A stretch of 64,000 nt of DNA from an uncultured Chloroflexia bacterium (GTDB lineage: Bacteria; Chloroflexota; Limnocylindria; Limnocylindrales; CSP1-4): assembly GCA_963764515.1 (NCBI GenBank), contig CAVXSS010000001.1:991672-1055671 (forward strand), written 5' to 3'. Below the pieces are notes generated by a model, which saw nothing but the letters and a program-made list of their open reading frames with translations, did no database searches and was not told the DNA's origin. Each line of letters begins with the position of its first letter. Position 1 is the first letter of the stretch. Shown piece after piece: positions 1,898 through 63,720 of the stretch. A program made the position numbers and the translations under genes.

Positions 1898-2973
1898 CAG
1901 CCGGTGGGGCGCTCGGTCGCCGCCGTCGCCTCGGCGCCGGCCAGCCGCGCCCCGTACTGGCGCTCGTAGTAGGCGTCCCAATCGCCGGAGCGAGCCGCGC
2001 GCCACCAGCCCTCGTTGGCGACGAACCAGTCGATGGTCACGGCGAGACCCTCGGCGAAGGCGGTCTTCGGTCGCCAGCCGAGACCGGCCAGCCGTGACCC
2101 GTCCATGGCGTAGCGCCGGTCGTGCCCGGGTCGATCCTCGACGTGACGGACCAGCGACCACGGCTTGTCAAGGCGATCGAGCAGCAACTGGACCGTGTCG
2201 CGGTTCGCCATCTCCGCCCCGCCCGGCAGGTTGTAGGTCTCGCCGCTCTTTCCGTGGCGAAGGACGAAGTCCACGCCGTCCGCGTGATCGGAGACGTACA
2301 GCCAGTCGCGACGCTGCAGGCCATCGCCATAGAGCGGCAGCGGCCGGTCGTCGATCGCGTTGGTGATGAAGAGCGGGATGAGCTTCTCGGGGTGGTGATA
2401 CGGGCCGTACGTGTTCGAGCCACGTGTCACCACCGCATCGATGCCGTGCGTGACGACGTAGCTGCGGACCAGCAGCTCACCGGCCGCCTTGGCCGCCGCG
2501 TAGGGCGAACGTGGGGCGAGGGCATCGCCCTCGTGGGACTCGCCGACCTCCACCGAGCCGTAGACCTCGTCCGTCGAGACCTGGAGAAGGCGCGGCGGCT
2601 CGGGCGCCGTGCGGCACGCTTCCAGCAGGACATGGACGCCGATCACCCCGGTCCGAAGGAACGCCTCCGGGTCCAGGATGGACCGATCGACGTGCGACTC
2701 CGCCGCGAAGTTGACGACGCCGTCCGCCTCGGCCACGAGGGGGGTCACGACCGCCGTGTCGGCGATATCGCCCTTCACGAACCGCAGGCGCGCCGCCAGT
2801 TCGGGGTCGGCGCGGACCGGCGCCAGGTTGGCCTCGTTCCCCGCGTACGTCATCTTGTCGAGGACCGTGATCCGGGTCCCGTCGCGGCGCGCCAGGACGT
2901 CGCGGACGTAGCACGACCCGATGAACCCGGCCCCGCCTGTCACCAGGAGGCGGCGGAACTCGCGGTCGGACAT
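1897..2973 (-). CDS. rmlB: dTDP-glucose 4,6-dehydratase
   Basis: GGAGFIG, FAAESHVDRSI, STDEVYG and RPGHDRRYA motifs. Confidence 0.96.
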   Translation of the reverse strand: MSDREFRRLLVTGGAGFIGSCYVRDVLARRDGTRITVLDKMTYAGNEANLAPVRADPELAARLRFVKGDIADTAVVTPLVAEADGVVNFAAESHVDRSILDPEAFLRTGVIGVHVLLEACRTAPEPPRLLQVSTDEVYGSVEVGESHEGDALAPRSPYAAAKAAGELLVRSYVVTHGIDAVVTRGSNTYGPYHHPEKLIPLFITNAIDDRPLPLYGDGLQRRDWLYVSDHADGVDFVLRHGKSGETYNLPGGAEMANRDTVQLLLDRLDKPWSLVRHVEDRPGHDRRYAMDGSRLAGLGWRPKTAFAEGLAVTIDWFVANEGWWRAARSGDWDAYYERQYGARLAGAEATAATERPTG

Positions 2974-2981
2974 CTGGATCG

Positions 2982-3743
2982 TCAGTCCGTGGGTCGCTCG
3001 ACCGGCGGTGCCAGCCGACCGGCCGCATCGTCGTCGCGGGCAAGCTCGGCGGCCCGCAGCAGCGAGGCGACGGTGCCCGCATCCGCCCAATGCCCGTCGT
3101 AGACGCGGCTGAACAGGCGTCCGCCCGGCACGTAGTGGTTCAGGACGTCGGTGATCTCGAACTCGCCGCGGCCCGACGGCGCGAGGTGCTCGATGACGTC
3201 GAACGCGTCGGGGCGCAGGAAGTAGACCCCGATCGGGATCAGGTCGCTCTTCGGGGCGGCAGGCTTCTCCTCGAAGCCGATCACACGCCCGTCCGCATCG
3301 AACTCCGCCACCCCGAACCGCTCCGGGTCGGGGACGCGGTACAGGAGCGTGCCCGCGCCATGCGGGCCGGCATCGAACTCCGAGGCGACGTCCGCCAGAT
3401 GGCGGCCGCGCAGGATGTTGTCACCGAGGATGCAGCAGAAGGAATCGTCACCGACGAAGCCGCGCGCCAGCCCGATGGCGTGGGCGATGCCCAGGGCGCC
3501 TCGCTGATATCGATACGTCAGGTCGAGCCCGAAATGGGAGCCATCCGCCAGCAGTTCGACCACGTCGCCGACGCTCTTGCCACCGACGATGACCAGCACC
3601 TCCCGGATGCCCATGCCGGCCAGGGTCTCGATCGGGTAGTAGATCATCGGCCGGTCGTAGATCGGCAGGAGATGCTTGTTCGTGACGATGGTCAGCGGAT
3701 AGAGCCGCGTCGCGGTCCCGCCAGCGAGGACGATGCCCTTCAT
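2982..3743 (-). CDS. rmlA: Glucose-1-phosphate thymidylyltransferase
   Basis: MKGIVLAGGTATRLYPLT, KHLLPIYDRPMIYYP, EKP and RGEFEITD motifs. Confidence 0.93.
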   Translation of the reverse strand: MKGIVLAGGTATRLYPLTIVTNKHLLPIYDRPMIYYPIETLAGMGIREVLVIVGGKSVGDVVELLADGSHFGLDLTYRYQRGALGIAHAIGLARGFVGDDSFCCILGDNILRGRHLADVASEFDAGPHGAGTLLYRVPDPERFGVAEFDADGRVIGFEEKPAAPKSDLIPIGVYFLRPDAFDVIEHLAPSGRGEFEITDVLNHYVPGGRLFSRVYDGHWADAGTVASLLRAAELARDDDAAGRLAPPVERPTD

Positions 3744-3804
3744 CGCGAGGAGCGTAGCAGGCGTCAGGAGCGGAAGCCCGCTCGGCCGAGCGGGGCCAGC
3801 CGGC

Positions 3805-4773
3805 TCAGGGCCCGGGCTTCGCGGTCTCGGCGGCGGGAGCGGGAGTGGGCGTGTAGCACGGCTGCTCACCCACCGGCAGCGTGCCGGAGCCGCTGCAGTC
3901 GATCGGCTGCTGCTCGATCGGTGGGAGGCCGCCCTCGTAGTCGAGGATGACCAGCACGTACTCGAGCAGGTCCAGGTCCGCGGTCGGCTGCAAGAAGGCG
4001 GTCTGGACGACGTCGTTGGCATCGCGCCGGACATCGACGACCTGGCCGATGAGGAGGCCCTTCGGATACGGCGACCGGATGCCGCTCGCGAGGGTGAGGC
4101 CGGCTGTCACGACCTCGTCGTTCAGGGCGACGCGCATGCTCGAGTCGATCTGGTTCATGACCAGGACGCCCCCAAGCTGGCCGACGACCTCGCCCGTGGC
4201 CGCGTTCGAGGCCAGCTGGCCGATGACCGTCGACTCGGCATCGGTCAGCAGCACGACCGTCGCGCTGCCGGGACCGATCTCGGTGATGCGTCCGGCGAGG
4301 GCGCCTCCGCCCGCGATGACGACGTCCCCGACCGCGAGGCCATCGGCGGTGCCCTTGTCGATGGTGACGCGCCGTCGGAACTCGTTGGACTCGCGACCGA
4401 TGACCGAGGCGGCGGTGGTCTTGAAATCGAAGCCGCTCTGCAGCTGCAGGAGCCCCGTCAGCTGGTCGTTCTCACGCTTGATCTCCTGGAGCCGGGCGTT
4501 CTCGTTGGACAAGCGCGTGTTCTCATCGTGCAGCGCGGCGTTGTCGATGCGTAGCCGATCGATCTCCGTGATGGCCGTGCCGACCGATGCGATCGCCCCG
4601 GCGATCTGGCCGAGGGCTGCCTGGGCCGGCCGAAAGGCGAAGCCGATGCCGTTCTGGAATTCCTGGACCGCCGGATTGGAGGAGAACGCCATCATCAGGA
4701 GCGTCGTCGCCAACAGCACGATGTAGGCGATCCCGCGTCGGCGTGCGGAGCGGTTGGCGAGCAACGAGGTCAT
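3805..4773 (-). CDS. mreC: Rod shape-determining protein MreC
   Basis: N-terminal TM, coiled coil, IDKGTADG and PKGLLIGQV; follows mreB. Confidence 0.93.
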   Translation of the reverse strand: MTSLLANRSARRRGIAYIVLLATTLLMMAFSSNPAVQEFQNGIGFAFRPAQAALGQIAGAIASVGTAITEIDRLRIDNAALHDENTRLSNENARLQEIKRENDQLTGLLQLQSGFDFKTTAASVIGRESNEFRRRVTIDKGTADGLAVGDVVIAGGGALAGRITEIGPGSATVVLLTDAESTVIGQLASNAATGEVVGQLGGVLVMNQIDSSMRVALNDEVVTAGLTLASGIRSPYPKGLLIGQVVDVRRDANDVVQTAFLQPTADLDLLEYVLVILDYEGGLPPIEQQPIDCSGSGTLPVGEQPCYTPTPAPAAETAKPGP

Positions 4774-4798
4774 GCTCGATCCCCTTGGTGGCGACCGC

Positions 4799-5851
4799 TC
4801 AGCGGGGCGGCCGCGAGTAGGTCTCGGCCACGAGCACGCGGTCCATGCCGTCGAGTTCCTGGAGGACGATGCCGGTCCCCCGGACGACGCAGGTCAACGG
4901 ATCGTCGGCGATGTGGACGGGCATCTGCGTGGCCTCCGCCACCCGCCGATCGAGGCCGGCGAGGAGGGCGCCGCCACCCGCGAGCACGATGCCCTGGTCC
5001 ATGATGTCGGCGACGAGCTCCGGCGGCGTCTCCTCGATCGTGTCCTTGACGGTATCGACGATCTGCGCGACCGACGGTTCGATGGCCTCGCGGATCTGGT
5101 CAGCGCCGACCTCGACGCTGCGCGGCAGGCCGGTCAACAGGTCCCGGCCGCGGAGGGTGACGCGCTGGGCGTCCCACTCGCCCGGGTAGGCCGATCCGAT
5201 CGCGATCTTGATGTCCTCGGCCGTTCGCTCGCCGAGGAACAGGTTGTACTCGCGACGCGCGAACGTGACGATGTCCTGGTCCATCTCGTCACCCCCGATG
5301 CGGATCGAGCGCGACACCACGATGCCGCCCAGGCTCAGCACCGCGACCTCGGTCGTGCCACCGCCGATGTCCACGATGAGGCTGCCGGACGGCTCGCTGA
5401 CCGGCAGACCGGCACCGATCGCGGCCGCCATGGGCTCCTCGATGAGTCGTGCCCATCGGGCCCCTGCGTTGAGGGCGGCGTCGCGAACGGCACGCTTCTC
5501 CACCTCGGTGACACCTGACGGGATGCCGAGCAGCATCCTCGGTCGCGGGATCAGCCCGATACGATCGTGCACCCGGTTCACGAAGTACTTGATCATCTGC
5601 TCGGTGACGTCGAAGTCGCTGATGACGCCGTCACGGAGCGGTCGGATCGCGATGATGTTCGCCGGGGTCCGGCCGACCATCCGCTTCGCCTCTGCCCCGA
5701 TCGCGAGGACGCGCCGCGTCTTGGCGTCGATGGCGACGACCGACGGTTCGCTCATGACGATGCCGCGGTCGCGGACGTGCACGAGCGTGTTGGCGGTACC
5801 GAGGTCGATGCCGATGTCGCGGGAGAAGAGGCCGAGGATGCGGTCGAACAT
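4799..5851 (-). CDS. mreB: Actin-like rod shape protein MreB
   Basis: IGIDLGTANT, EPMAAAIGAG, DIGGGTTEVA and GGGALL motifs. Confidence 0.98.
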   Translation of the reverse strand: MFDRILGLFSRDIGIDLGTANTLVHVRDRGIVMSEPSVVAIDAKTRRVLAIGAEAKRMVGRTPANIIAIRPLRDGVISDFDVTEQMIKYFVNRVHDRIGLIPRPRMLLGIPSGVTEVEKRAVRDAALNAGARWARLIEEPMAAAIGAGLPVSEPSGSLIVDIGGGTTEVAVLSLGGIVVSRSIRIGGDEMDQDIVTFARREYNLFLGERTAEDIKIAIGSAYPGEWDAQRVTLRGRDLLTGLPRSVEVGADQIREAIEPSVAQIVDTVKDTIEETPPELVADIMDQGIVLAGGGALLAGLDRRVAEATQMPVHIADDPLTCVVRGTGIVLQELDGMDRVLVAETYSRPPR

Positions 5852-6084
5852 GCTGGGGAAGGCGTCCTTCGTCGTGATCGGGTCGCGGCGCGGGCGCCGT
5901 CGGCGTCCAGGGGGCCGGGTCGCGCGGCGCGGGCGGCAAGCCCGGGCAGTATACGCGCTCGCCTCCGTGTGGCTGGGCGCGGTCGTTGATCGGCCGTGAC
6001 CCGCGGCCCGGACACCGGATCGTCGTGCGGGTCGACCCGGTTCCAGACACGCCCGACTGGGACGGGGACCCCGGATGCGTCGCG

Positions 6085-6837
6085 TCAGGCGCCCCGGTCC
6101 GAGGCTCGGGCGACGGACGTCGGACGGTCGAATGCGATCCCGCGATCGCGCAGCGAAACGTATGCGTCGTGGCCGATGACGAGGTGGTCGAGCAGGTTGA
6201 TGTCGAGCAGCCGACCGGCGGCCAGGGCCTCAGCCGTCAGGTGCAGGTCGTCGGGCGATGGTGTCGGGTCACCCGAGGGGTGGTTGTGGACCATGATCAG
6301 GCTTGCGGCGTTCAGCCGGACCGCATCGCGGAAGAGCTCGCCGATGCGAACGAGCGAGGCACTGACGTTGCCCTGGTAGACCGTCGCAACGCGGAGGACG
6401 TGGTTCTTGGTGTCGAGCATCACCACGCGCAGTTCCTCGCGTTCCAGCCGACCCATCTGGAGGATCAGCCGGTCGGCGACGTCGCCGGGTCCGCGGATCG
6501 ACCATCGACCGGCGGGCCAGTCGGCCAGCAGTCGCCGGCCGAGCTCGAACGCGGCCACCAGCTGAGCGGCGCGAGCCTCGCCGATCCCGCTCAACCCGGC
6601 AAGCTCGAGATCGGTGGCCCGCGCGAGGCCCGTGAGCCCGTCGTAGCGAACCAGGACATCGCCGGCAAGATCGACGGCGGATCGCCCGCGCGTCCCGGAT
6701 CCCCAGATGAGGGCCACGAGCTCGGCGGCGGTCAGCCCGGCCGCACCGCGAAGGGCCAGTCGTTCGCGCGGCCGCTCGGTGGCCGGGAGCTCACGGATCG
6801 CGCGCCCGTGGGTCGTCTGTTCGGTCGGATCGGTCAC
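6085..6837 (-). CDS. radC: RadC (UPF0758, JAB domain) protein
   Basis: ERPRERL, HhH region, HNHPSGDPTPSPDD and LLDHLVIG; GTG start after GGAGG. Confidence 0.95.
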   Translation of the reverse strand: MTDPTEQTTHGRAIRELPATERPRERLALRGAAGLTAAELVALIWGSGTRGRSAVDLAGDVLVRYDGLTGLARATDLELAGLSGIGEARAAQLVAAFELGRRLLADWPAGRWSIRGPGDVADRLILQMGRLEREELRVVMLDTKNHVLRVATVYQGNVSASLVRIGELFRDAVRLNAASLIMVHNHPSGDPTPSPDDLHLTAEALAAGRLLDINLLDHLVIGHDAYVSLRDRGIAFDRPTSVARASDRGA

Positions 6838-57160: not shown

Positions 57161-58156
57161 ATGACTCGCATCCTCGTCACTGGTGGTGCCGGATACGTCG
57201 GCTCGGTCTCGGTGGCGGCCTTCCTCGCGGCGGGGCACGAGGTCGTCGTGGTCGACGACCTCACGACCGGACATCGCGCGGCGGTGCCGGCCGGTGCGCG
57301 GCTCCACGCCGGGACGTATGGCGATGCAGACACGGTGGGCCGGCTCCTGGCGGACGAGCGCATCGAGGCGATCCTCCACTGCGCCGCGCGCTCGCTGGTC
57401 GGGGAGTCCATCGCGGACCCCGCGAAGTACTACCGGGACAACGTCGCCGGCGGGGTGGCGCTGCTCGAGGCGGCACGGACCGTCGGCGTCGCGAGGATCG
57501 TCTTCTCGTCCTCGGCCGCGGTCTATGGCACGCCCGACTCGACGCCGATCCCCGAGGACGCCCCCCTCCGGCCGATCAACCCGTACGGCGAGACCAAGCG
57601 GACCTTCGAGGCCGCGCTCGACTGGTACGGCCGGGCCTACGGGATCCGGGGCGTGAGCCTTCGCTACTTCAACGTCGCGGGTGCGACCGCGGAGCTCGGC
57701 GAGGACCACGATCCGGAGACGCACCTCATCCCCAACGTGCTCGCGGCCGCCGAGGGCCGAGGGCCACTGACCGTCTTCGGCGACGACTACCCCACCGCCG
57801 ACGGCACGTGCGTCCGCGACTACATCCACGTGGAGGACCTCGCCGACGCACACCTGCGGGCGATCGAGGCCACCGCCCCCGGCGATCCGCGGACCGCCAC
57901 CTTCCTCGCCTGCAATCTCGGGATCGGTGGCGGGTTCTCGATCCGTGAGGTCCTCGCCGCGGCCGAGCGCGCGATCGGGCGCGAGATCCCGTTCACGATC
58001 GGGCCCCGCCGCGTCGGCGACCCACCGGTGCTCGTGGCATCCGCGGCGCGTGCCGGCGAGGTGCTCGGTTGGCGGCCTGCGCACCCGTCGCTCGATGCGA
58101 TGGTCAGCAGCGCGTGGGCGTGGCGCCAACGCTTCCCGGACGGCTACCCGGACTGA
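57161..58156 (+). CDS. galE: UDP-glucose 4-epimerase
   Basis: GGAGYVG, VGES, YGETK, LRYFN and DGTCVRDYIHV motifs. Confidence 0.95.
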   Translation: MTRILVTGGAGYVGSVSVAAFLAAGHEVVVVDDLTTGHRAAVPAGARLHAGTYGDADTVGRLLADERIEAILHCAARSLVGESIADPAKYYRDNVAGGVALLEAARTVGVARIVFSSSAAVYGTPDSTPIPEDAPLRPINPYGETKRTFEAALDWYGRAYGIRGVSLRYFNVAGATAELGEDHDPETHLIPNVLAAAEGRGPLTVFGDDYPTADGTCVRDYIHVEDLADAHLRAIEATAPGDPRTATFLACNLGIGGGFSIREVLAAAERAIGREIPFTIGPRRVGDPPVLVASAARAGEVLGWRPAHPSLDAMVSSAWAWRQRFPDGYPD

Positions 58157-59535
58157 ACCGCGTCGGGATCCGGGCCCCCGGCGCCGGGGGACTCCTCACT
58201 CCCCGCCCAGCGGTCGCTGACCGGCCAGACCAGCCACACGCCGATGAGCATCGTGACGAGCAGGCTGCCGATCGCGAGCTGGTACGCGCCGTTGCCGAGC
58301 GAGTCGATGAACAGGAACACGATCGCGCTGTACAACAGCTGGCCGATGACCTGTGAGCCCTTGCCGACCAGCCCGTACAAGCCGAAGAACTCCCCGAGTC
58401 GCGCGGGCGGCGACAGCCGGATCATGAACACGCGGTCGGCGACCTGGACGCCGCCCAGGCCACTGCCCAGGATCGCGCCGGCGAGGACGAAGATCGCGAT
58501 GCCCGGGGTCGTGCCACTCAAACCGAGCGACGCGACGCCAAGCAGCAGCCCCACCACCCACGACGCGAGGACCGCGATGAGCGTCCGCTTCGGGCCGAAC
58601 CGATCGACCAGCCAGCCCCACGCGAAGCTCGCCACGATGGCCACGACCGTCAGCAGGACCGAGGTGATGAGCCACTGCCCCTGGGTGAGTCCCACGGCTT
58701 TCACGGCCACGACGCTCATCACGACGATCAGCGTGTTGACCGCGTCGCTGTAGAAGAACCGGCCGAGGAGGAAGCGCAACAACCCAGGCACGGTCCGAGC
58801 GTGATCGATCGTGACCCGGACCTGTGCCAGCGATGACGTGATGTCGCTGATCCGCACCCGGGACGCCGTCGCGCCGATCGGGTCGCGCACGACGAGGAAG
58901 ATCGGCACCGCGAAGACGGCGAACAGGACCCCGGCGATCTGGAAGATGGGGTCAGGGATCTCGGTGATGCCCAGCAGGATCAGCGTGAGCGCTGCGAAGA
59001 TCGTCCCCATGTAGCCGACCCCGACGCCGATCCCCGATAGCTTGCCGCGGGTCTCCGGGTAGCTGACCGCAGACAGGGTCGCGTCGTAGTAGATGAGCGC
59101 GGCTTGGTACCCGAAGTTCGCGATCGTGAACAGCAGCGCCCCGAGGAGCGCGGGCGACGGCCCGATGAGCACGGTCGGGACGATCGTCAGGACCGTGAAG
59201 AAGAGCAGGAACGGAAGGCGCCGGCCACCGCGGTCGCTGAGCGCCCCGAGGATCGGCGAGACCAGCGCATTGAGCCCGACGCTGGTGGCGATCGCCAGGC
59301 CCTGGACGAGCTGGCCCGGGCCCTGCCCGAACCGACTGTCATCGGTCAGCCACAGGCCGATCGCCGTCGACACGATCGCGTAGCTGAAGATCGTGTTCGC
59401 GAAGTCGTAGAGGGACCAGGCGATCGGGACCGCCGCCCGGCCGCTGGGCGTGAGGCCGGCCAGGCCACCCTGCCGCCCGATGCGCGGCGCGTCGGCGTCG
59501 GACGCAGGCCCGCGGTGCGGGGCGTCGCTGGTCAC
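58144..59535 (-). CDS. MFS transporter (UMF1/Atg22-like)
   Basis: WSLYDFAN, LGALSD, GYMG and GEFFGLY motifs; about 12 TMs. Confidence 0.88.
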   Translation of the reverse strand: MTSDAPHRGPASDADAPRIGRQGGLAGLTPSGRAAVPIAWSLYDFANTIFSYAIVSTAIGLWLTDDSRFGQGPGQLVQGLAIATSVGLNALVSPILGALSDRGGRRLPFLLFFTVLTIVPTVLIGPSPALLGALLFTIANFGYQAALIYYDATLSAVSYPETRGKLSGIGVGVGYMGTIFAALTLILLGITEIPDPIFQIAGVLFAVFAVPIFLVVRDPIGATASRVRISDITSSLAQVRVTIDHARTVPGLLRFLLGRFFYSDAVNTLIVVMSVVAVKAVGLTQGQWLITSVLLTVVAIVASFAWGWLVDRFGPKRTLIAVLASWVVGLLLGVASLGLSGTTPGIAIFVLAGAILGSGLGGVQVADRVFMIRLSPPARLGEFFGLYGLVGKGSQVIGQLLYSAIVFLFIDSLGNGAYQLAIGSLLVTMLIGVWLVWPVSDRWAGSEESPGAGGPDPDAVQSG

Positions 59536-59558
59536 TGGCGGATGATAATCGGGACACG

Positions 59559-59605
59559 GCGGCCGTTGTCAGGGTTGCGGCCGTTGTCGGCCTGCGGCCG
59601 CTGAC
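59559..59605. repeat. Three direct repeats GCGGCCG(T/C)TG(T/A)C in a divergent promoter region
   Basis: Copies at 59559, 59577 and 59594, between two -10 boxes. Confidence 0.65.
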
Positions 59606-59623
59606 GACCGCTAGGATGACCCG

Positions 59624-60328
59624 ATGACCGTCATGACCGTCGTCCATGACCTGCGGCCGCAGCGGTTCGGCTCCCGCCATCCGAACGCGGTGCGCGACCC
59701 GATCGTCGAACCGATGTGGACCGGCGTCCGGGTACTGGCAGCCTTCGAGCGCTCGGGCGTCGACGGCGGCTCGGCAACCCTTCTGAAGGACGAGCGCGGG
59801 AACCGCGTCGAGGGTCACGAGGCCATCGAGGGGGCCCTCCTCGCGGCCGCCGGCGCCAACGCCCTCATCGTCGACGCGTGCCTCACCAAGCAGATGGCCC
59901 ACGATGGCAGCGGCGTGTACACCGGCATCGAGACACAGATCCCGACCGGCAGGTTGATCGTCCAGTCGATGGTCGGCGTCCGGCGCAACCGAGCGGCCGA
60001 GACCGTCGAGCGACGCGAGCAGACGCGACAGGCACAGACCTTCGAACCGACCGACACGGTCACCCTGGTGGCGACCGACCTCCTCTGGCTCGACGACGAG
60101 TCCTTGCTCGACGTCCCACTGCTCGAGCGCAAGCGCCTGCTGGAGGCGGTGCTCGACGAGTCCGACATGATCCGACGGGGGCTGTACGTCCGACCACCGA
60201 TCGAGAGCTGGGTCGGCTCGTGGCGGGCCCTCGGCTTCGCCGAGCTCACCTTCAAGGCCGCCAACAGTCGATACCGGCCAGGTACCGCCACGGACGACTG
60301 GTCGGTCGCCCCGATGCCGCGCCGCTGA
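59624..60328 (+). CDS. ATP-dependent DNA ligase adenylation-domain homolog with a degenerate active site
   Basis: EPMWTGVR (canonical ExKxDGxR), DLLWLDDESLLDVPLLERKRLLE, FKAANSRYRPG...W. Confidence 0.8.
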   Translation: MTVMTVVHDLRPQRFGSRHPNAVRDPIVEPMWTGVRVLAAFERSGVDGGSATLLKDERGNRVEGHEAIEGALLAAAGANALIVDACLTKQMAHDGSGVYTGIETQIPTGRLIVQSMVGVRRNRAAETVERREQTRQAQTFEPTDTVTLVATDLLWLDDESLLDVPLLERKRLLEAVLDESDMIRRGLYVRPPIESWVGSWRALGFAELTFKAANSRYRPGTATDDWSVAPMPRR

Positions 60329-60374
60329 CACCGTCCGTGTGGCACGCCACGGAGCGGGATGGTACGGTGGGCTC

Positions 60375-61766
60375 GTGCCCCAGACCGCTCTGACGACGGC
60401 CATCCGCGACGAGATCTCGCGACTCGGCCGGGCCGACATCATGGTCGGCATCCCGAGCTTCAAGAACGCGGCAACCATCGGCTACGTGGTGCGCGCCGCC
60501 CAGGCCGGCCTGGTCCAGTACTTCCCGGACCTCCAGCCGGTCGTGGTCAACTCGGACGCAGGCTCGCCCGACGGCACGGGCCGGGTCGTCGTCGAGACCG
60601 AGCCGCCCGACTACGTGGAACAGATCCTCCTCGTCCGGCCGAACCACAAGCTGCAACGCGTCAGCCTGACCTATCCGGAGATCGATGGCGTCGGCGGGAA
60701 GGGCGCGGCCCTGCGCACCATCTTCGAGATGGCGGCCGCGCTCGATGTCGAGGCCCTCGTCGTCGTCGACAGCGACCTGCGGAGCATCGTCCCCGAGTGG
60801 ATCGAGCTCCTGGCCGGGCCCATCCTCAAGGGCGGCTACGACTTCGTCGCGCCGCTCTACGCTCGGTACAAGTACGACGGAACGATCACCAACACGGTCA
60901 CCTATCCGTTGACCCGGGCGCTGTACGGCCATCGCATCCGCCAACCGATCGGTGGGGACTTCGGCGTGTCCGGCGACCTCGTCCGCCACTACCTCGAGCT
61001 CGACGACTGGACGCCCGAGATCAGCCGGTTCGGCATCGACATCTGGATGACCGTCTCGGCGCTGACCGGTGGTTTCGCCGTCTGCCAGACCCGCCTCGGC
61101 GCGAAGATCCACGACCCCAAGGACCCCGGCTCGGATCTCGGACCGATGTTCCGACAGGTGGTGGGCACGATCCTGCGGTTGGCCGACCGATACGCCGACC
61201 AGTGGCTGACGATCCGTGGCAGCCACGACGTACCGGCATACGGGTTCGAACGCATCATCGACCCGCCACCGCTCGAGGTGAACACGCTCCGGCTCCTGTC
61301 CGAGTTCCATGTGGGCTCGCTGACGCTCGCCGACACGTGGCGGGTCATGCTGGCCCCGGCAACTGCGGCCACGGTCCTCGAGCTGGCGGCCGAGGCGGGC
61401 GATCTGGCCGATGTCGCGCGCACGAAGCTCGGCATCGGTGGGGACGTGGCGTCAACCACCGCCAGCACGCTCGAGATGGCCGAGGCGGCCAGCTCGTTCC
61501 ATTTCCCCGACGACGTCTGGGCGCGGGTCGTCTACGACTTGGTGGTGGCCGCCCGCGACGCGATCTCGACCACGACGACGGGCCCGTCGCTGGAAACCCT
61601 CGTCGCGGCGCTGGTCCCGATCTACTTCGGACGCGTCGGCAGCTTCGTCATCGAGAACCGGCACATCCCGACCGACGCTGCCGAAGAGCGGGTCGAGCGC
61701 CAGGCGCGGGAGTTCGAGCTCCTGAAGCCGTACCTCGTCGACCGGTGGGAGGCCGCCGCCCGATGA
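60375..61766 (+). CDS. Glucosylglycerate/mannosylglycerate synthase-like glycosyltransferase (single-step, Ggs-like)
   Basis: VGIPS..NA.TI, GKGAA, DSDL, RYKYDGTITN, RQPIGGDF and FGIDIWMT motifs. Confidence 0.8.
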   Translation: MPQTALTTAIRDEISRLGRADIMVGIPSFKNAATIGYVVRAAQAGLVQYFPDLQPVVVNSDAGSPDGTGRVVVETEPPDYVEQILLVRPNHKLQRVSLTYPEIDGVGGKGAALRTIFEMAAALDVEALVVVDSDLRSIVPEWIELLAGPILKGGYDFVAPLYARYKYDGTITNTVTYPLTRALYGHRIRQPIGGDFGVSGDLVRHYLELDDWTPEISRFGIDIWMTVSALTGGFAVCQTRLGAKIHDPKDPGSDLGPMFRQVVGTILRLADRYADQWLTIRGSHDVPAYGFERIIDPPPLEVNTLRLLSEFHVGSLTLADTWRVMLAPATAATVLELAAEAGDLADVARTKLGIGGDVASTTASTLEMAEAASSFHFPDDVWARVVYDLVVAARDAISTTTTGPSLETLVAALVPIYFGRVGSFVIENRHIPTDAAEERVERQAREFELLKPYLVDRWEAAAR

Positions 61767-61776
61767 CCGGTCGTCG

Positions 61777-63720
61777 ATGACCAGCCGACCGCCGCTTCCC
61801 GTGCGGATCCTCATCCCGGTCGCGAATCCGATGACGGCCGAGGAGCTGATCCGGCTCGGCGCGGCGATGCTCGACCGCAAGCACGGGGAGATCTCAGCAC
61901 TCGGCATCGTCGAGGTGCCGGAGGGGATGGCCCTGTCTGAAGGCGCTACCCGCGCCCGCCACGCCCGGCGGCTGCTCCAGCGCGTGCTGGACTACGCCCC
62001 TGACGGCACGACGATCCATCCCATCGTGCGCATCGGGCGGCACGCGGCCGAGGGAATCGTCGAGGCTACGGCCGAGCAGGAAGCCGACCTCATCATCTTT
62101 GGCTGGGGCGGTCGCACCGCGGGTGCTCGCGACAGGACCGGCACGACGGTCTTCTCACCGACGATCGACGAGGTCGTTCGCGAGGCGCCGTGCGACATCG
62201 CCGTGGTCAAGCAGCGTGGCGCGAAGGAGATCAAGCGCATCCTCGTCCCGGTCCGTGGTGGCCCTCACGCCGAGCTCGCGGTCCGGTATGCCGATGCGAT
62301 CGCCGGCTACCACGATGCCACCGTCGTCGTCCTCCACCTCGTTCCGCCCGGCATCACGCTCGCGGTGCGGGCCCAGGCGGAGCGGGCGCTCGCGTCGTTC
62401 ATGAAGCAGCACCTGCACGGCCACGGCGAGGCCATCCTCCGCGAGGCCCCCAACGTCCGAAACGCGATCCTGCGCGAGGCCGACAAGGCGGATCTCGTCG
62501 TCATGGGTGCATCGGCCGCACCGGCCGGCTCGGACGGGGAGAGCCATCTGTTCGGCGCGTTGCCCGAGGCCGTCGCCGCACGGGCGAAACCGTCGGTGAT
62601 CGTGGTCCGGACGCGGGAGACGATCGCCCGCAGCACCTTCGACCAGCTGGCCGCGCGGGCCGAGACCCTCGCTGCGGCCGACCGAGCCGCCGAGGAGGCC
62701 CGGGCCGTCCCGGTCCGGGTCGAGCGCTGGTTCGGCGAGTCGAACTTCCACCACTCCGAGTTCGCGGATCTGCGCCGCCTCGTGACCCTCAAGGAGAAGC
62801 AGCATCTGACGGTCAGCCTCGTGCTCCCCACGCTCGACGAGGAAGAGACGATCGGACCGATCGTCCGCCGGGCCATCCGCGAGATGGTCGGCCGCGTCCC
62901 GCTGCTCGACGAGGTCCTGGTCATCGATTCCGCATCCACCGACCGGACGCGCGAGATCGCCGAGTCCGAGGGCGCTCGTGTCGTCCAGCACCACGACGTC
63001 CTGCCGCGATACGGCTCGTTCAAGGGGAAGGGCGAGGCGCTCTGGAAGTCGCTCTATGAGACCAGTGGCGACATCGTCATCTGGGCCGACACCGACGTGA
63101 AGAACTGGCACCCGCGGATGGTCTACGGGACGCTTGGCCCGCTCCTCCATGAGCCTCGCCTCCAGTACGTGAAGGGCTACTACCAGCGGCCCATCGTGGA
63201 GGGTGGGGTACTCAAGGAGGGCGGCGGCGGCCGGGTGACCGAGCTCGTCGCACGGCCCCTGATCAACCTGTTCTTTCCGGAGCTCTCGGGGATGATCCAA
63301 CCGCTCGCCGGGGAATACGCCGGTCGGCGGTCGCTGCTCGAGGGCATCCCGTTCTTCACCGGGTATGCCGTGGAGATCGGGCACCTCATCGACGCCGCGG
63401 AGCGTGTCGGCATCGAAGGGCTGGGGCAGGTGGACCTCGAGCGGCGCGTGCACCGCAACCAGGAGCTCGAGGGGCTTTCACGGATGTCGTTCGTGATCCT
63501 CCAGGCCGTCATGCGGCGTCTCGAGGAGCGTCGCAAGGCCCGTCTGTTCGCGGAGATGGGCTCGACGATGAAGCTGCCACGCTCCGGTCACGGCCGGCTG
63601 TCCCTCGAGGTCATCGAGCTGGCCGACCAGGAGCGCCCACCGATGATCCGGATCCCGGAGTACCTGGAGCGGCGGCGAGTAGCGGGTGCCGATTCGGCCG
63701 TCGAGCCGACCCCCAGGTAG
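61777..63720 (+). CDS. gpgS: Tandem universal-stress-protein domains fused to glucosyl-3-phosphoglycerate synthase
   Basis: Two Usp domains (RILIPVAN; RILVPVRGGPH), then GKGEALWKS, DTD, GGRVTEL.ARP, QPLAGEYA and GYAVE motifs. Confidence 0.88.
   Translation: MTSRPPLPVRILIPVANPMTAEELIRLGAAMLDRKHGEISALGIVEVPEGMALSEGATRARHARRLLQRVLDYAPDGTTIHPIVRIGRHAAEGIVEATAEQEADLIIFGWGGRTAGARDRTGTTVFSPTIDEVVREAPCDIAVVKQRGAKEIKRILVPVRGGPHAELAVRYADAIAGYHDATVVVLHLVPPGITLAVRAQAERALASFMKQHLHGHGEAILREAPNVRNAILREADKADLVVMGASAAPAGSDGESHLFGALPEAVAARAKPSVIVVRTRETIARSTFDQLAARAETLAAADRAAEEARAVPVRVERWFGESNFHHSEFADLRRLVTLKEKQHLTVSLVLPTLDEEETIGPIVRRAIREMVGRVPLLDEVLVIDSASTDRTREIAESEGARVVQHHDVLPRYGSFKGKGEALWKSLYETSGDIVIWADTDVKNWHPRMVYGTLGPLLHEPRLQYVKGYYQRPIVEGGVLKEGGGGRVTELVARPLINLFFPELSGMIQPLAGEYAGRRSLLEGIPFFTGYAVEIGHLIDAAERVGIEGLGQVDLERRVHRNQELEGLSRMSFVILQAVMRRLEERRKARLFAEMGSTMKLPRSGHGRLSLEVIELADQERPPMIRIPEYLERRRVAGADSAVEPTPR

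Follow-up and report, generated by a model that had tools for sequence, protein, structure and literature searches.

What is kept when a bacterium keeps a DNA ligase domain from which the catalytic residues have gone? The question is raised by an open reading frame (ORF) in a 64 000 nt stretch of DNA (the window, to which positions refer unless stated otherwise; contig CAVXSS010000001.1, positions 991 672 to 1 055 671) from an uncultured Chloroflexia bacterium of the order Limnocylindrales. An initial annotation, made from the letters alone, had described the plus-strand segment 59624..60328 as an uninterrupted ORF for a stand-alone ligase fold with its catalytic residues replaced, and had taken it for a maintained pseudoenzyme. 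The ORF is indeed uninterrupted over its 234 codons, and we refer to it and its product as PSL, for pseudo-ligase. PSL is a real, conserved pseudoenzyme, mis-annotated as a ligase, and adds a new, inactive branch to a superfamily that is very well known. The motif I lysine is absent family-wide (it is found in 1 of 207 homologues) and the gene is under purifying selection, with a median ratio of non-synonymous to synonymous substitution rates (dN/dS) of 0.25, so that the description as a maintained pseudoenzyme holds.

PSL descends from the adenylation domain of an ATP-dependent DNA ligase of the LigD/LigC type. As a single sequence it scores 25.2 bits with Pfam PF01068, just below the gathering score of 26.2 and over residues 129–180 only, and 30.6 bits with NCBIfam TIGR02779, the LigD ligase domain, which is far below the cut-off of 227.75. 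Some orthologues clear the Pfam threshold (41.8 and 35.0 bits), and many homologues carry a precomputed PF01068 label. When a profile of 23 PSL homologues was compared with the PDB, the ligase domain of Mycobacterium tuberculosis LigD was found (E-value 1.7e-10) in a motif-by-motif alignment that places vEPlWaGvR on FEG(K/M)WDGYR, vDGy on LDGE, aiD on AFD and aGLTFK on EGVIAK. Structure prediction supports the ligase fold that had been suggested: an AlphaFold 2 (AF2) model based on 48 diverse homologues has a mean predicted local distance difference test (pLDDT) value of 91.4 and a predicted template modelling (pTM) score of 0.86, and is uncertain only at residues ~95–125 (block means of 58, 55 and 66 over residues 91–120). 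In a Foldseek comparison of this model with the PDB, ranks 1–49 of the 50 matches listed are ATP-dependent DNA ligases (best E-value 2.2e-11) and rank 50 is the ligase domain of C. thermocellum PNKP; LigD is matched at E-values of 2e-8 (1vs0_B) and 4.1e-8 (6nhx), with a query-normalised template modelling score of ~0.6. By both the model and the structural matches PSL has the nucleotidyltransferase (NTase, or adenylation) fold of ATP-dependent ligases. A search of the ESM Atlas returned only PSL's own family and ordinary ligase clusters, while comparisons with PADLOC and PHROGs returned 0 families each and thus no tie to the known defence or phage families that these hold.

Among solved structures, the LIG domain of LigD (Rv0938; PDB 1VS0, 6NHX and 6NHZ; TIGR02779) is the closest to PSL by sequence and has the same fold. 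Both share an EP/G-x-W-x-G-x-R frame, the DG of motif III, the string D-L-L-x-L-D-G, an ER helix and the pattern K...S.Y.PG....W. Unlike LigD, PSL has neither the Lys and Asp of motif I, nor the Glu of motifs III and IV, nor motif V, nor OB, POL or PE domains, and it has an additional insertion between motifs III and IIIa, which includes one helix (residues 123–138) and is modelled in part with low confidence. It also stands alone, as had been claimed: the 234 aa end eight residues past W226, and there is no sequence beyond the NTase domain.

The motif readings of the initial annotation are all correct at the residues concerned. Residues 31–36 of PSL read MWTGVR where LigD has KWDGYR, so that M31 occupies the position of the lysine and T33 that of the aspartate; motif III reads DAC, residues 151–152 of motif IIIa read TD where LigD has FD, and residues 204–211 of motif IV read GFAELTFK where LigD has GWEGVIAK. 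Motif V (KxK) and the OB-fold domain with motif VI are missing, and all phosphate-, metal- and nucleophile-handling residues are replaced. The structural signatures DLLWLD..PLLERKRLLE and KAANSRYRPG....W were likewise correctly reported as intact. Lacking the Lys and Asp of motif I, the Glu of motifs III and IV, motif V and the OB domain, PSL is predicted from its sequence to be incapable of the lysine-AMP chemistry that defines ligases.

These replacements are not peculiar to the window copy. In an alignment of 271 collected PSL homologues, where counts at each position refer to the sequences that cover it, the Lys position (207 sequences) is occupied by Leu in 123, Met in 31, Val in 15, Ala in 14, Gln in 7, His in 4, Phe in 3, and Glu, Gly and Ile in 2 each; these ten commonest residues account for 203 of the 207 and do not include Lys. 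The possibility that homologues had retained it is thereby answered, the sole Lys-bearing sequence (P0155) nonetheless missing the motif I Asp and the motif III Glu. Among 48 representatives the same position holds Leu in 26, Val and Ala in six each, His in three, Gln in two and one each of Met, Tyr, Lys, Arg and Phe. The motif III Glu (position 86) is replaced mainly by Tyr (96) or Phe (83), with no Glu among the ten commonest residues (220/222); the DAC of the window copy is itself a rare variant, A85 occurring in 7 and C86 in 4 of 222 sequences. At the motif IV Glu position, 206, Glu is found in only 12 of 237 homologues, and the aromatic position of motif IIIa, 151, holds Val in 30, Ile in seven, Thr and Leu in four each and Phe in two of the 48 representatives. 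Other positions are strongly conserved, among them E29, P30, W32, G34 and R36 of the motif I frame: E29 is found in 206/207 homologues, R36 in 203/207, D84 in 202/222, D152 in 248/250, K211 in 202/233 (with Arg in a further 28), N214 in 228/233, Y217 in 227/233 and W226 in 219/221. Twelve residues (E29, P30, W32, L166, E168, R169, R171, L173, G204, N214, Y217 and W226) are invariant in the 48 representatives, which are 33–54 % identical to the window PSL, and the mean column identity of the family alignment is 35 %. The loss of the catalytic residues is thus ancestral to the whole family, a family trait and not a local decay.

The family is large. A word-indexed protein search with PSL found 2462 proteins at E≤1e-3, the best 120 of which are 51–99 % identical and 198–253 aa long, and an exhaustive search of 50 %-identity representatives found 297 at E≤1e-3 and 169 at E≤1e-10. 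Among contigs from one genome per species a PSL relative is encoded in 460, and the best 80 of these stretches are nearly all titled as Chloroflexota, Chloroflexia or Limnocylindrales metagenome-assembled genomes (MAGs). When 401 genomes were sampled evenly across the phylum, small-ORF matches were confined to the window's own class; in the other classes the PSL profile matches long ligase frames, most of them of LigD size, and some ORFs the size of LigC. The tallies of 'other families' in this sample take in three unpublished genomes (G173, G272 and G038), none of which carries a conclusion by itself. Three of the loci (L042, L044 and L054) are titled as Verrucomicrobiia or Patescibacteria MAGs and have the same GalE, (MFS), PSL and GT475 block described below, at a GT475 identity of 80–88 %; Usp-GpgS is next on L042, while the L044 and L054 contigs end inside GT475. 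With this shared block, they probably represent Limnocylindria contigs that were mis-binned. Two apparent departures from the stand-alone form were rejected. Long open frames of 400–670 aa in some PSL relatives are products of G+C-rich read-through upstream of the gene rather than longer forms or fusions, and P0272, a 710 aa frame on a single ENA contig that resembles a PSL–GT475 fusion, has the C-terminus of PSL replaced by the +1 frame and most likely reflects a frameshift or assembly error.

Selection on PSL was measured with the method of Nei & Gojobori (NG86). Because dS levels off near 0.55 in this G+C-rich DNA, distant pairs were discarded and only 10 independent, non-overlapping close pairs were used. 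Over these the dN/dS of PSL ranges from 0.08 to 0.50, and the upper bootstrap bounds (0.19–0.83) all lie below 1, so the neutral decay that would have undone the initial annotation's proposal is not seen. The median for Usp-GpgS over the same 10 pairs is 0.046 and that for GT475 (7 pairs) is 0.067; PSL evolves 4–5 times faster than these neighbours. Identity to the window copy across the block is correspondingly 39–67 % for PSL, 74–94 % for GT475 and 69–93 % for Usp-GpgS. PSL is under purifying selection and yet is the fastest-evolving protein of its block. One locus, L009, was left out of the GT475 alignment; its GT475 orthologue (L009:6860-8242) contains one in-frame stop codon, which represents either a sequencing error or a pseudogene.

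Table 1. Positions of PSL, its sequence elements and neighbouring genes in the window, with the PSL2 gene found elsewhere in the same genome
Feature	Position	Strand	Remarks
MFS/Atg22-like transporter gene	58144..59535	-	Divergent; Pfam PF11700 1.5e-30, MFS_1 9.1e-19
-10-like hexamer TAGGAT	59612..59617	+	6 nt before PSL ATG; leaderless-type promoter (predicted)
PSL ORF	59624..60328	+	234 aa, uninterrupted; stand-alone ligase NTase domain without catalytic residues
Motif I remnant EPMWTGVR, residues 29-36	59708..59731	+	Aligned to LigD FEGKWDGYR; column counts in text
Motif III remnant DAC, residues 84-86	59873..59881	+	LigD DGE; Glu replaced; family consensus DG[Y/F]
Family-specific insertion, residues ~90-145	59891..60058	+	Between motifs III and IIIa; alignment gaps versus PSL2 and LigD
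Motif IIIa region VATDLLWLD, residues 149-157	60068..60094	+	Aligned to LigD; aromatic position is T151, D152 kept
Structural helix PLLERKRLLE, residues 165-174	60116..60145	+	L166, E168, R169, R171 and L173 invariant in 48 diverse members
Motif IV remnant GFAELTFKAANSRYRPG, residues 204-220	60233..60283	+	Glu lost (A206); K211, N214 and Y217 retained
Extended -10-like box TGGTACGGT	60360..60368	+	6 nt before GT475 GTG
Glycosyltransferase gene GT475	60375..61766	+	Distant GpgS relative
Usp-GpgS fusion gene (Usp domains and glucosyl-3-phosphoglycerate synthase)	61777..63720	+	647 aa; PRK13915 369 bits (cut-off 262); Pfam Usp 3.9e-24
PSL2 gene	L004 1354-2160 (own genome, G000, contig 2)	-	268 aa; motif I FEPWWGGVR; second Lys-less stand-alone ligase domain

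A role as a ligase is not needed of PSL, since its own genome, which has four further PF01068 genes and one Ku gene, encodes three ATP-dependent ligases with a canonical, Lys-bearing motif I (KYDGIR, KWDGYR in a LigD-length frame and KWDGFR in a LigC-like frame). What the protein does instead may be indicated by the residues that it keeps. As set out in part of a review of ligases (PMC7470946), the adenine in these enzymes is enclosed on its two sides by a motif IV residue that is aliphatic and an aromatic residue of motif IIIa, while the motif IV Lys contacts adenine N1, the acidic residue of motif I contacts N6 and the motif I Arg holds the ribose. The positions equivalent to three of these adenosine contacts are kept in PSL as E29 (N6), R36 (ribose) and K211 (N1), and they are among the best-conserved of the family, which is why the pocket may still bind an adenosine-containing ligand. 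We tentatively propose, with rather less than even confidence and from sequence comparison, that PSL binds an adenylate-type ligand non-covalently or serves as an adaptor. The pocket would bind ATP or AMP, or an App-X compound such as ADP-glucose, without reacting with it, and PSL would use protein contacts to relay that information or to work as an adaptor; its clients might be the glucosylglycerate pathway next to it, DNA repair or another process. The acidity of the family (median isoelectric point 5.4, net charge -5) and the absence of an OB or other DNA-binding domain argue against direct nucleic-acid binding.

The LigD mutants in which the motif I Lys is changed to Met (K481M-type; the LigD chain of 6NHX/6NHZ, profile-aligned as FEGMWDGYR) have Met at the same position as M31, and the same part of the review (PMC7470946) records that this change blocks step 1 of ligation while co-crystallization with the cofactor is still possible. 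These mutants keep all other catalytic residues and the OB domain, whereas PSL has neither, so that cofactor binding by PSL cannot be assumed. Several further points weigh against a ligand-binding pocket. The aromatic residue of motif IIIa that stacks on adenine is replaced by Val, Ile or Thr, and the ribose-contacting Glu of motif III is gone; the replacements at catalytic positions are mostly hydrophobic (Lys to Leu or Met, Glu to Tyr or Phe) and could simply fill the pocket; the retention of E29, R36 and K211 might be structural; and in genus g2 one member has lost R36 (EPSWEGLA). The role, whatever it is, is also not an essential one, since PSL is dispensable and has been lost several times independently. 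It is present in 21 of 23 genomes of the window's own family, f1 (all but G221 and G277), in 13 of 16 of family f3 (all but G058, G097 and G142, where a DEAD-box helicase gene adjoins GT475), in both genomes of f4 and in none of the four of f2, a family of the same order with genomes of 1.1–1.4 Mb that are 91–93 % complete. In 5 of 41 sampled genomes of the class, namely the five just named from f1 and f3, the loss is clean and GT475 and Usp-GpgS are retained. At the PSL-less locus of G221 (L104, contig 26) genes for a MacB/FtsX-type ABC exporter and an HlyD-like adaptor, ~4.2 kb in all (2044-6243), lie on the opposite strand between the MFS gene and GT475.

The initial annotation had noted that PSL sits upstream of compatible-solute genes, and this too is correct: GT475, some homologues of which bear the label glucosylglycerate synthase at JGI (the source's own label), and Usp-GpgS, which is identified at 369 bits against a cut-off of 262, follow it. 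The Usp region at the N-terminus of Usp-GpgS is matched by Pfam in two stretches, and the fusion is conserved across the class at 69–93 % identity. Further along the genome (L098) are genes for a GNAT acetyltransferase, a glycerate kinase (PF02595) and an EndoIII-like HhH-GPD protein, followed by Tad pilus genes. The full block, written with > for rightward and < for leftward genes, has the order GalE > < MFS transporter, PSL > GT475 > Usp-GpgS > (GNAT) > glycerate kinase > EndoIII-like, and essentially every one of 80 loci shows it over the length that its contig covers. The order PSL > GT475 > Usp-GpgS is seen in nearly all 80, the exceptions being loci truncated where the contig ends; of 91 loci, 72 have glycerate kinase, 60 the EndoIII-like gene and 33 GNAT. 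Family f3 is divergent, with GT475 only ~55 % identical, and there PSL is the gene immediately upstream of GT475 and Usp-GpgS in 9 of the 11 loci examined. In other Chloroflexota a GT475 homologue is found downstream of a DUF4147/MOFRL glycerate-kinase-type gene in three of six loci.

Because the whole eight-gene block is syntenic, including genes without an obvious link to the pathway, adjacency alone counts for little, and the link of PSL to the compatible-solute genes is positional only. PSL is not consistently inherited with the pathway genes: besides the five losses, the GT475–Usp-GpgS–glycerate kinase cassette of G022 has moved ~250 kb to a site next to Na+/H+ exchanger and transporter genes, leaving PSL between a DEAD-box helicase gene and the EndoIII-like gene; in G325, of family f4, PSL lies unlinked between SPFH/NfeD genes and glutamate dehydrogenase, with a diverged GT475 homologue on a different contig; and in 14 genomes from other families of Chloroflexota GT475 homologues occur without PSL. 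In G317, the other f4 genome, the PSL and GT475 matches are likewise on different contigs. A prediction of a complex between PSL and GT475 gave a score of 0.00 with no verdict and counts neither for nor against contact.

The arrangement of promoter-like sites bears on the same question. The -10-like hexamer TAGGAT reported 6 nt before the PSL start codon is present, and 79 of 80 related loci have a TAnnnT hexamer that begins 11–15 nt before the PSL start codon, the background frequency being 0.00066 per position. For GT475, 70 of 83 loci have such a hexamer 11–14 nt ahead of the conserved GTG, as opposed to 1 of 74 for Usp-GpgS, which served as an internal control. PSL and GT475 thus each appear to have a conserved -10-like box of their own, placed as in leaderless genes, and GT475 and Usp-GpgS look like one leaderless transcription unit. 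With its own conserved box, GT475 would not require co-transcription of PSL with the glucosylglycerate genes. The two genes are on the same strand. Their spacer has a median of 76 nt, with values above 400 nt at 5 of 82 loci, and terminator-like sites were not found in it, so that read-through is possible. The GT475 start codon is most likely the GTG at 60375 and not that at 60339; an arrangement in which PSL is the first gene of an operon with the glycosyltransferases, its stop sometimes overlapping the start of GT475, was rejected, as the overlap arose from taking the GTG at 60339 and it is the conserved GTG at 60375 that has its own -10 box. The hint from PSL towards the compatible-solute genes is therefore weaker than it appears, because GT475 has its own promoter box, PSL has been lost in 5 of 41 genomes and it was left behind when the cassette moved. 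We note that the divergent MFS/Atg22-like gene also has a -10-like box near its GTG start (window 59538-59572, minus strand; promoter-like site 59572-59545), which reads GATGATA on the plus strand and is of TATCAT type on the minus strand, and which recurs in many related loci. A similar pattern precedes GalE in 42 of 75 loci. Such boxes suggest that leaderless transcripts are common in this lineage.

The same genome encodes a second Lys-less stand-alone ligase domain, PSL2 (Table 1), flanked by genes for an ABC-2-type membrane protein and a large beta-propeller/peptidase-like protein and not near Ku or LigD. A search with PSL2 found 2550 homologues at E≤1e-3, the best 120 of them 72–100 % identical, and many are labelled LigD at JGI. 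PSL2 resembles PSL in being an acidic, Lys-less stand-alone NTase domain of ~250 aa from the same class that is mis-named LigD or ATP-dependent ligase in databases. It differs in retaining the DGE of motif III and the FD of motif IIIa, in having Trp at the Lys position, in its genomic context and in being far more conserved (72–92 % identity among top matches); it also has conserved terminal peptides, DQLSLRLE... at the N-terminus and ...APVLALISRLPLDD at the C-terminus, that are absent from PSL. The two are related according to hhalign (probability 99.2, E-value 2.4e-19, 24 % identity). In a quick maximum-likelihood tree of 46 NTase domains (L120 was left out), PSL, including its f3 and f4 forms, forms one clade with support of 100 in the Shimodaira–Hasegawa-like approximate likelihood ratio test (SH-aLRT) and a stem of 0.93. 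PSL2 forms a separate clade with an Arg-bearing variant (SH-aLRT 89; 99 for the PSL2 core alone), and the two clades join weakly (SH-aLRT 81), beside LigD-type domains. With separate clades, 24 % identity and no terminal peptides, PSL is not a member of the PSL2 type. Two further PSL2-like frames were seen: one in G352 (L119) with Arg for the motif I Lys (EVRWDGLR) in a 386 aa ORF, and one in G253 (L123, contig 2) reading FEPWWPGIR, with a ligase of LigD length (L129) ~0.9 kb away on the same strand.

How well does the proposed binder or adaptor fare beside other accounts of PSL? That the ORF is a decaying ligase pseudogene, or a chance frame in G+C-rich DNA, might be supposed from the sub-threshold Pfam score of the window copy, from the high rate of evolution of PSL relative to GT475 and from its repeated loss. 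Against this stand intact ORFs of ~220–250 aa in hundreds of species, dN/dS values with upper bounds below 1, the 12 invariant residues among such divergent members, the confident AF2 fold and the conserved promoter box, and we regard decay as extremely improbable and in effect refuted by the conservation and dN/dS data. It is very doubtful, too, that PSL is still an enzyme, working without a lysyl-AMP intermediate by, for example, direct nucleotidyl transfer to, or hydrolysis of, a small molecule. Polar residues around the old site are strongly conserved (E29, R36, D84, D152, K211, N214 and Y217) and the family-specific insertion, ~35–55 residues between motifs III and IIIa, could serve as a lid; but the invariant residues are nearly all inherited positions of the ligase core, neither a nucleophile nor a metal-binding pair has newly become conserved, motifs I, III and IV have all lost the acidic residues that bind metal, position 31 is aliphatic in most members, and no precedent was found in the full-text literature searched.

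A stronger contender, though on balance we think it unlikely, is a ligand-free adaptor or scaffold, a PSL kept purely for protein–protein interaction with its pocket filled in, perhaps in the service of DNA repair or replication. The predominance of hydrophobic residues at the catalytic positions (Leu, Met, Val or Ala at 31, Tyr or Phe at 86, Val or Ile at 151) fits such a protein, as does fast evolution around a conserved core, and a connection with repair can be read into the weak grouping of PSL and PSL2 next to LigD-type domains, the PSL2-like gene beside a LigD in G253, the PSL of G022 that stayed between a helicase and an EndoIII-like glycosylase, and that of G325, with a DinG-like exonuclease-helicase two genes away. 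Ancestral gene order, however, accounts for the closeness to repair genes, LigD is still present in the PSL-less G221 and G277, the conserved terminal peptides of PSL2 are missing from PSL, and PSL is acidic with no OB or DNA-binding domain; nor would a pure scaffold need the near-invariant charged pocket residues E29, R36 and K211. Improbable, in our estimate, is a dedicated accessory or regulator of glucosylglycerate synthesis that senses ADP-glucose or ATP and modulates the GgS-like GT475 or Usp-GpgS. The constancy of the gene order in nearly all 80 loci and in 9 of 11 loci of the divergent family, the possible read-through across the short spacer and the glycerate kinase downstream speak for it, as does the use of ADP-glucose by GgS and many GpgS enzymes (described in part of PMC3736172), this being an App-X compound like the intermediates of ligases. 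Yet GT475 has its own extended -10 box in 70 of 83 loci, the adjacency is unspecific in an eight-gene block that takes in GalE and the EndoIII-like gene as well, PSL is deleted in the five genomes that keep both enzymes, the G022 cassette moved without it and 14 other Chloroflexota genomes have GT475 homologues without PSL. A non-covalent adenylate-type binder or adaptor thus remains the account that we tentatively prefer. A more novel reading, in which PSL would sense App-X metabolites (ADP-glucose, or ATP or AMP), holding them unreacted through the adenosine half-site, and tune glucosylglycerate synthesis or another stress response in Limnocylindria, strikes us as quite unlikely.

Pseudoenzymes are well documented among kinases, phosphatases and proteases. 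In the full-text literature that was searched, with subscription-only literature outside its scope, no catalytically dead bacterial member of the DNA-ligase/capping-enzyme NTase superfamily was found, and nothing on glucosylglycerate in Limnocylindria. The part of the ligase review available to us (PMC7470946) makes no mention of a dead bacterial DNA-ligase homologue, and the corresponding part of PMC10140301 contains nothing relevant.

A family of ~2,460 PSL proteins is kept under selection in most of a single class of Chloroflexota that are abundant in soil and freshwater, which means that a ligase adenylation domain can be retained for a purpose other than ligation. PSL is in effect a natural Lys-to-Met/Leu counterpart of the mutants that trap ligase–ATP complexes, and it is accompanied by PSL2, a second and independent-looking Lys-less family. 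Members of both families are entered in databases as 'ATP-dependent DNA ligase' or 'LigD', and metagenome surveys therefore overcount repair ligases. Should PSL prove to be a sensor, it would provide the first case of a ligase-superfamily domain turned into a small-molecule receptor, and together with the PSL2 family it would define a class of bacterial 'pseudo-ligases'.

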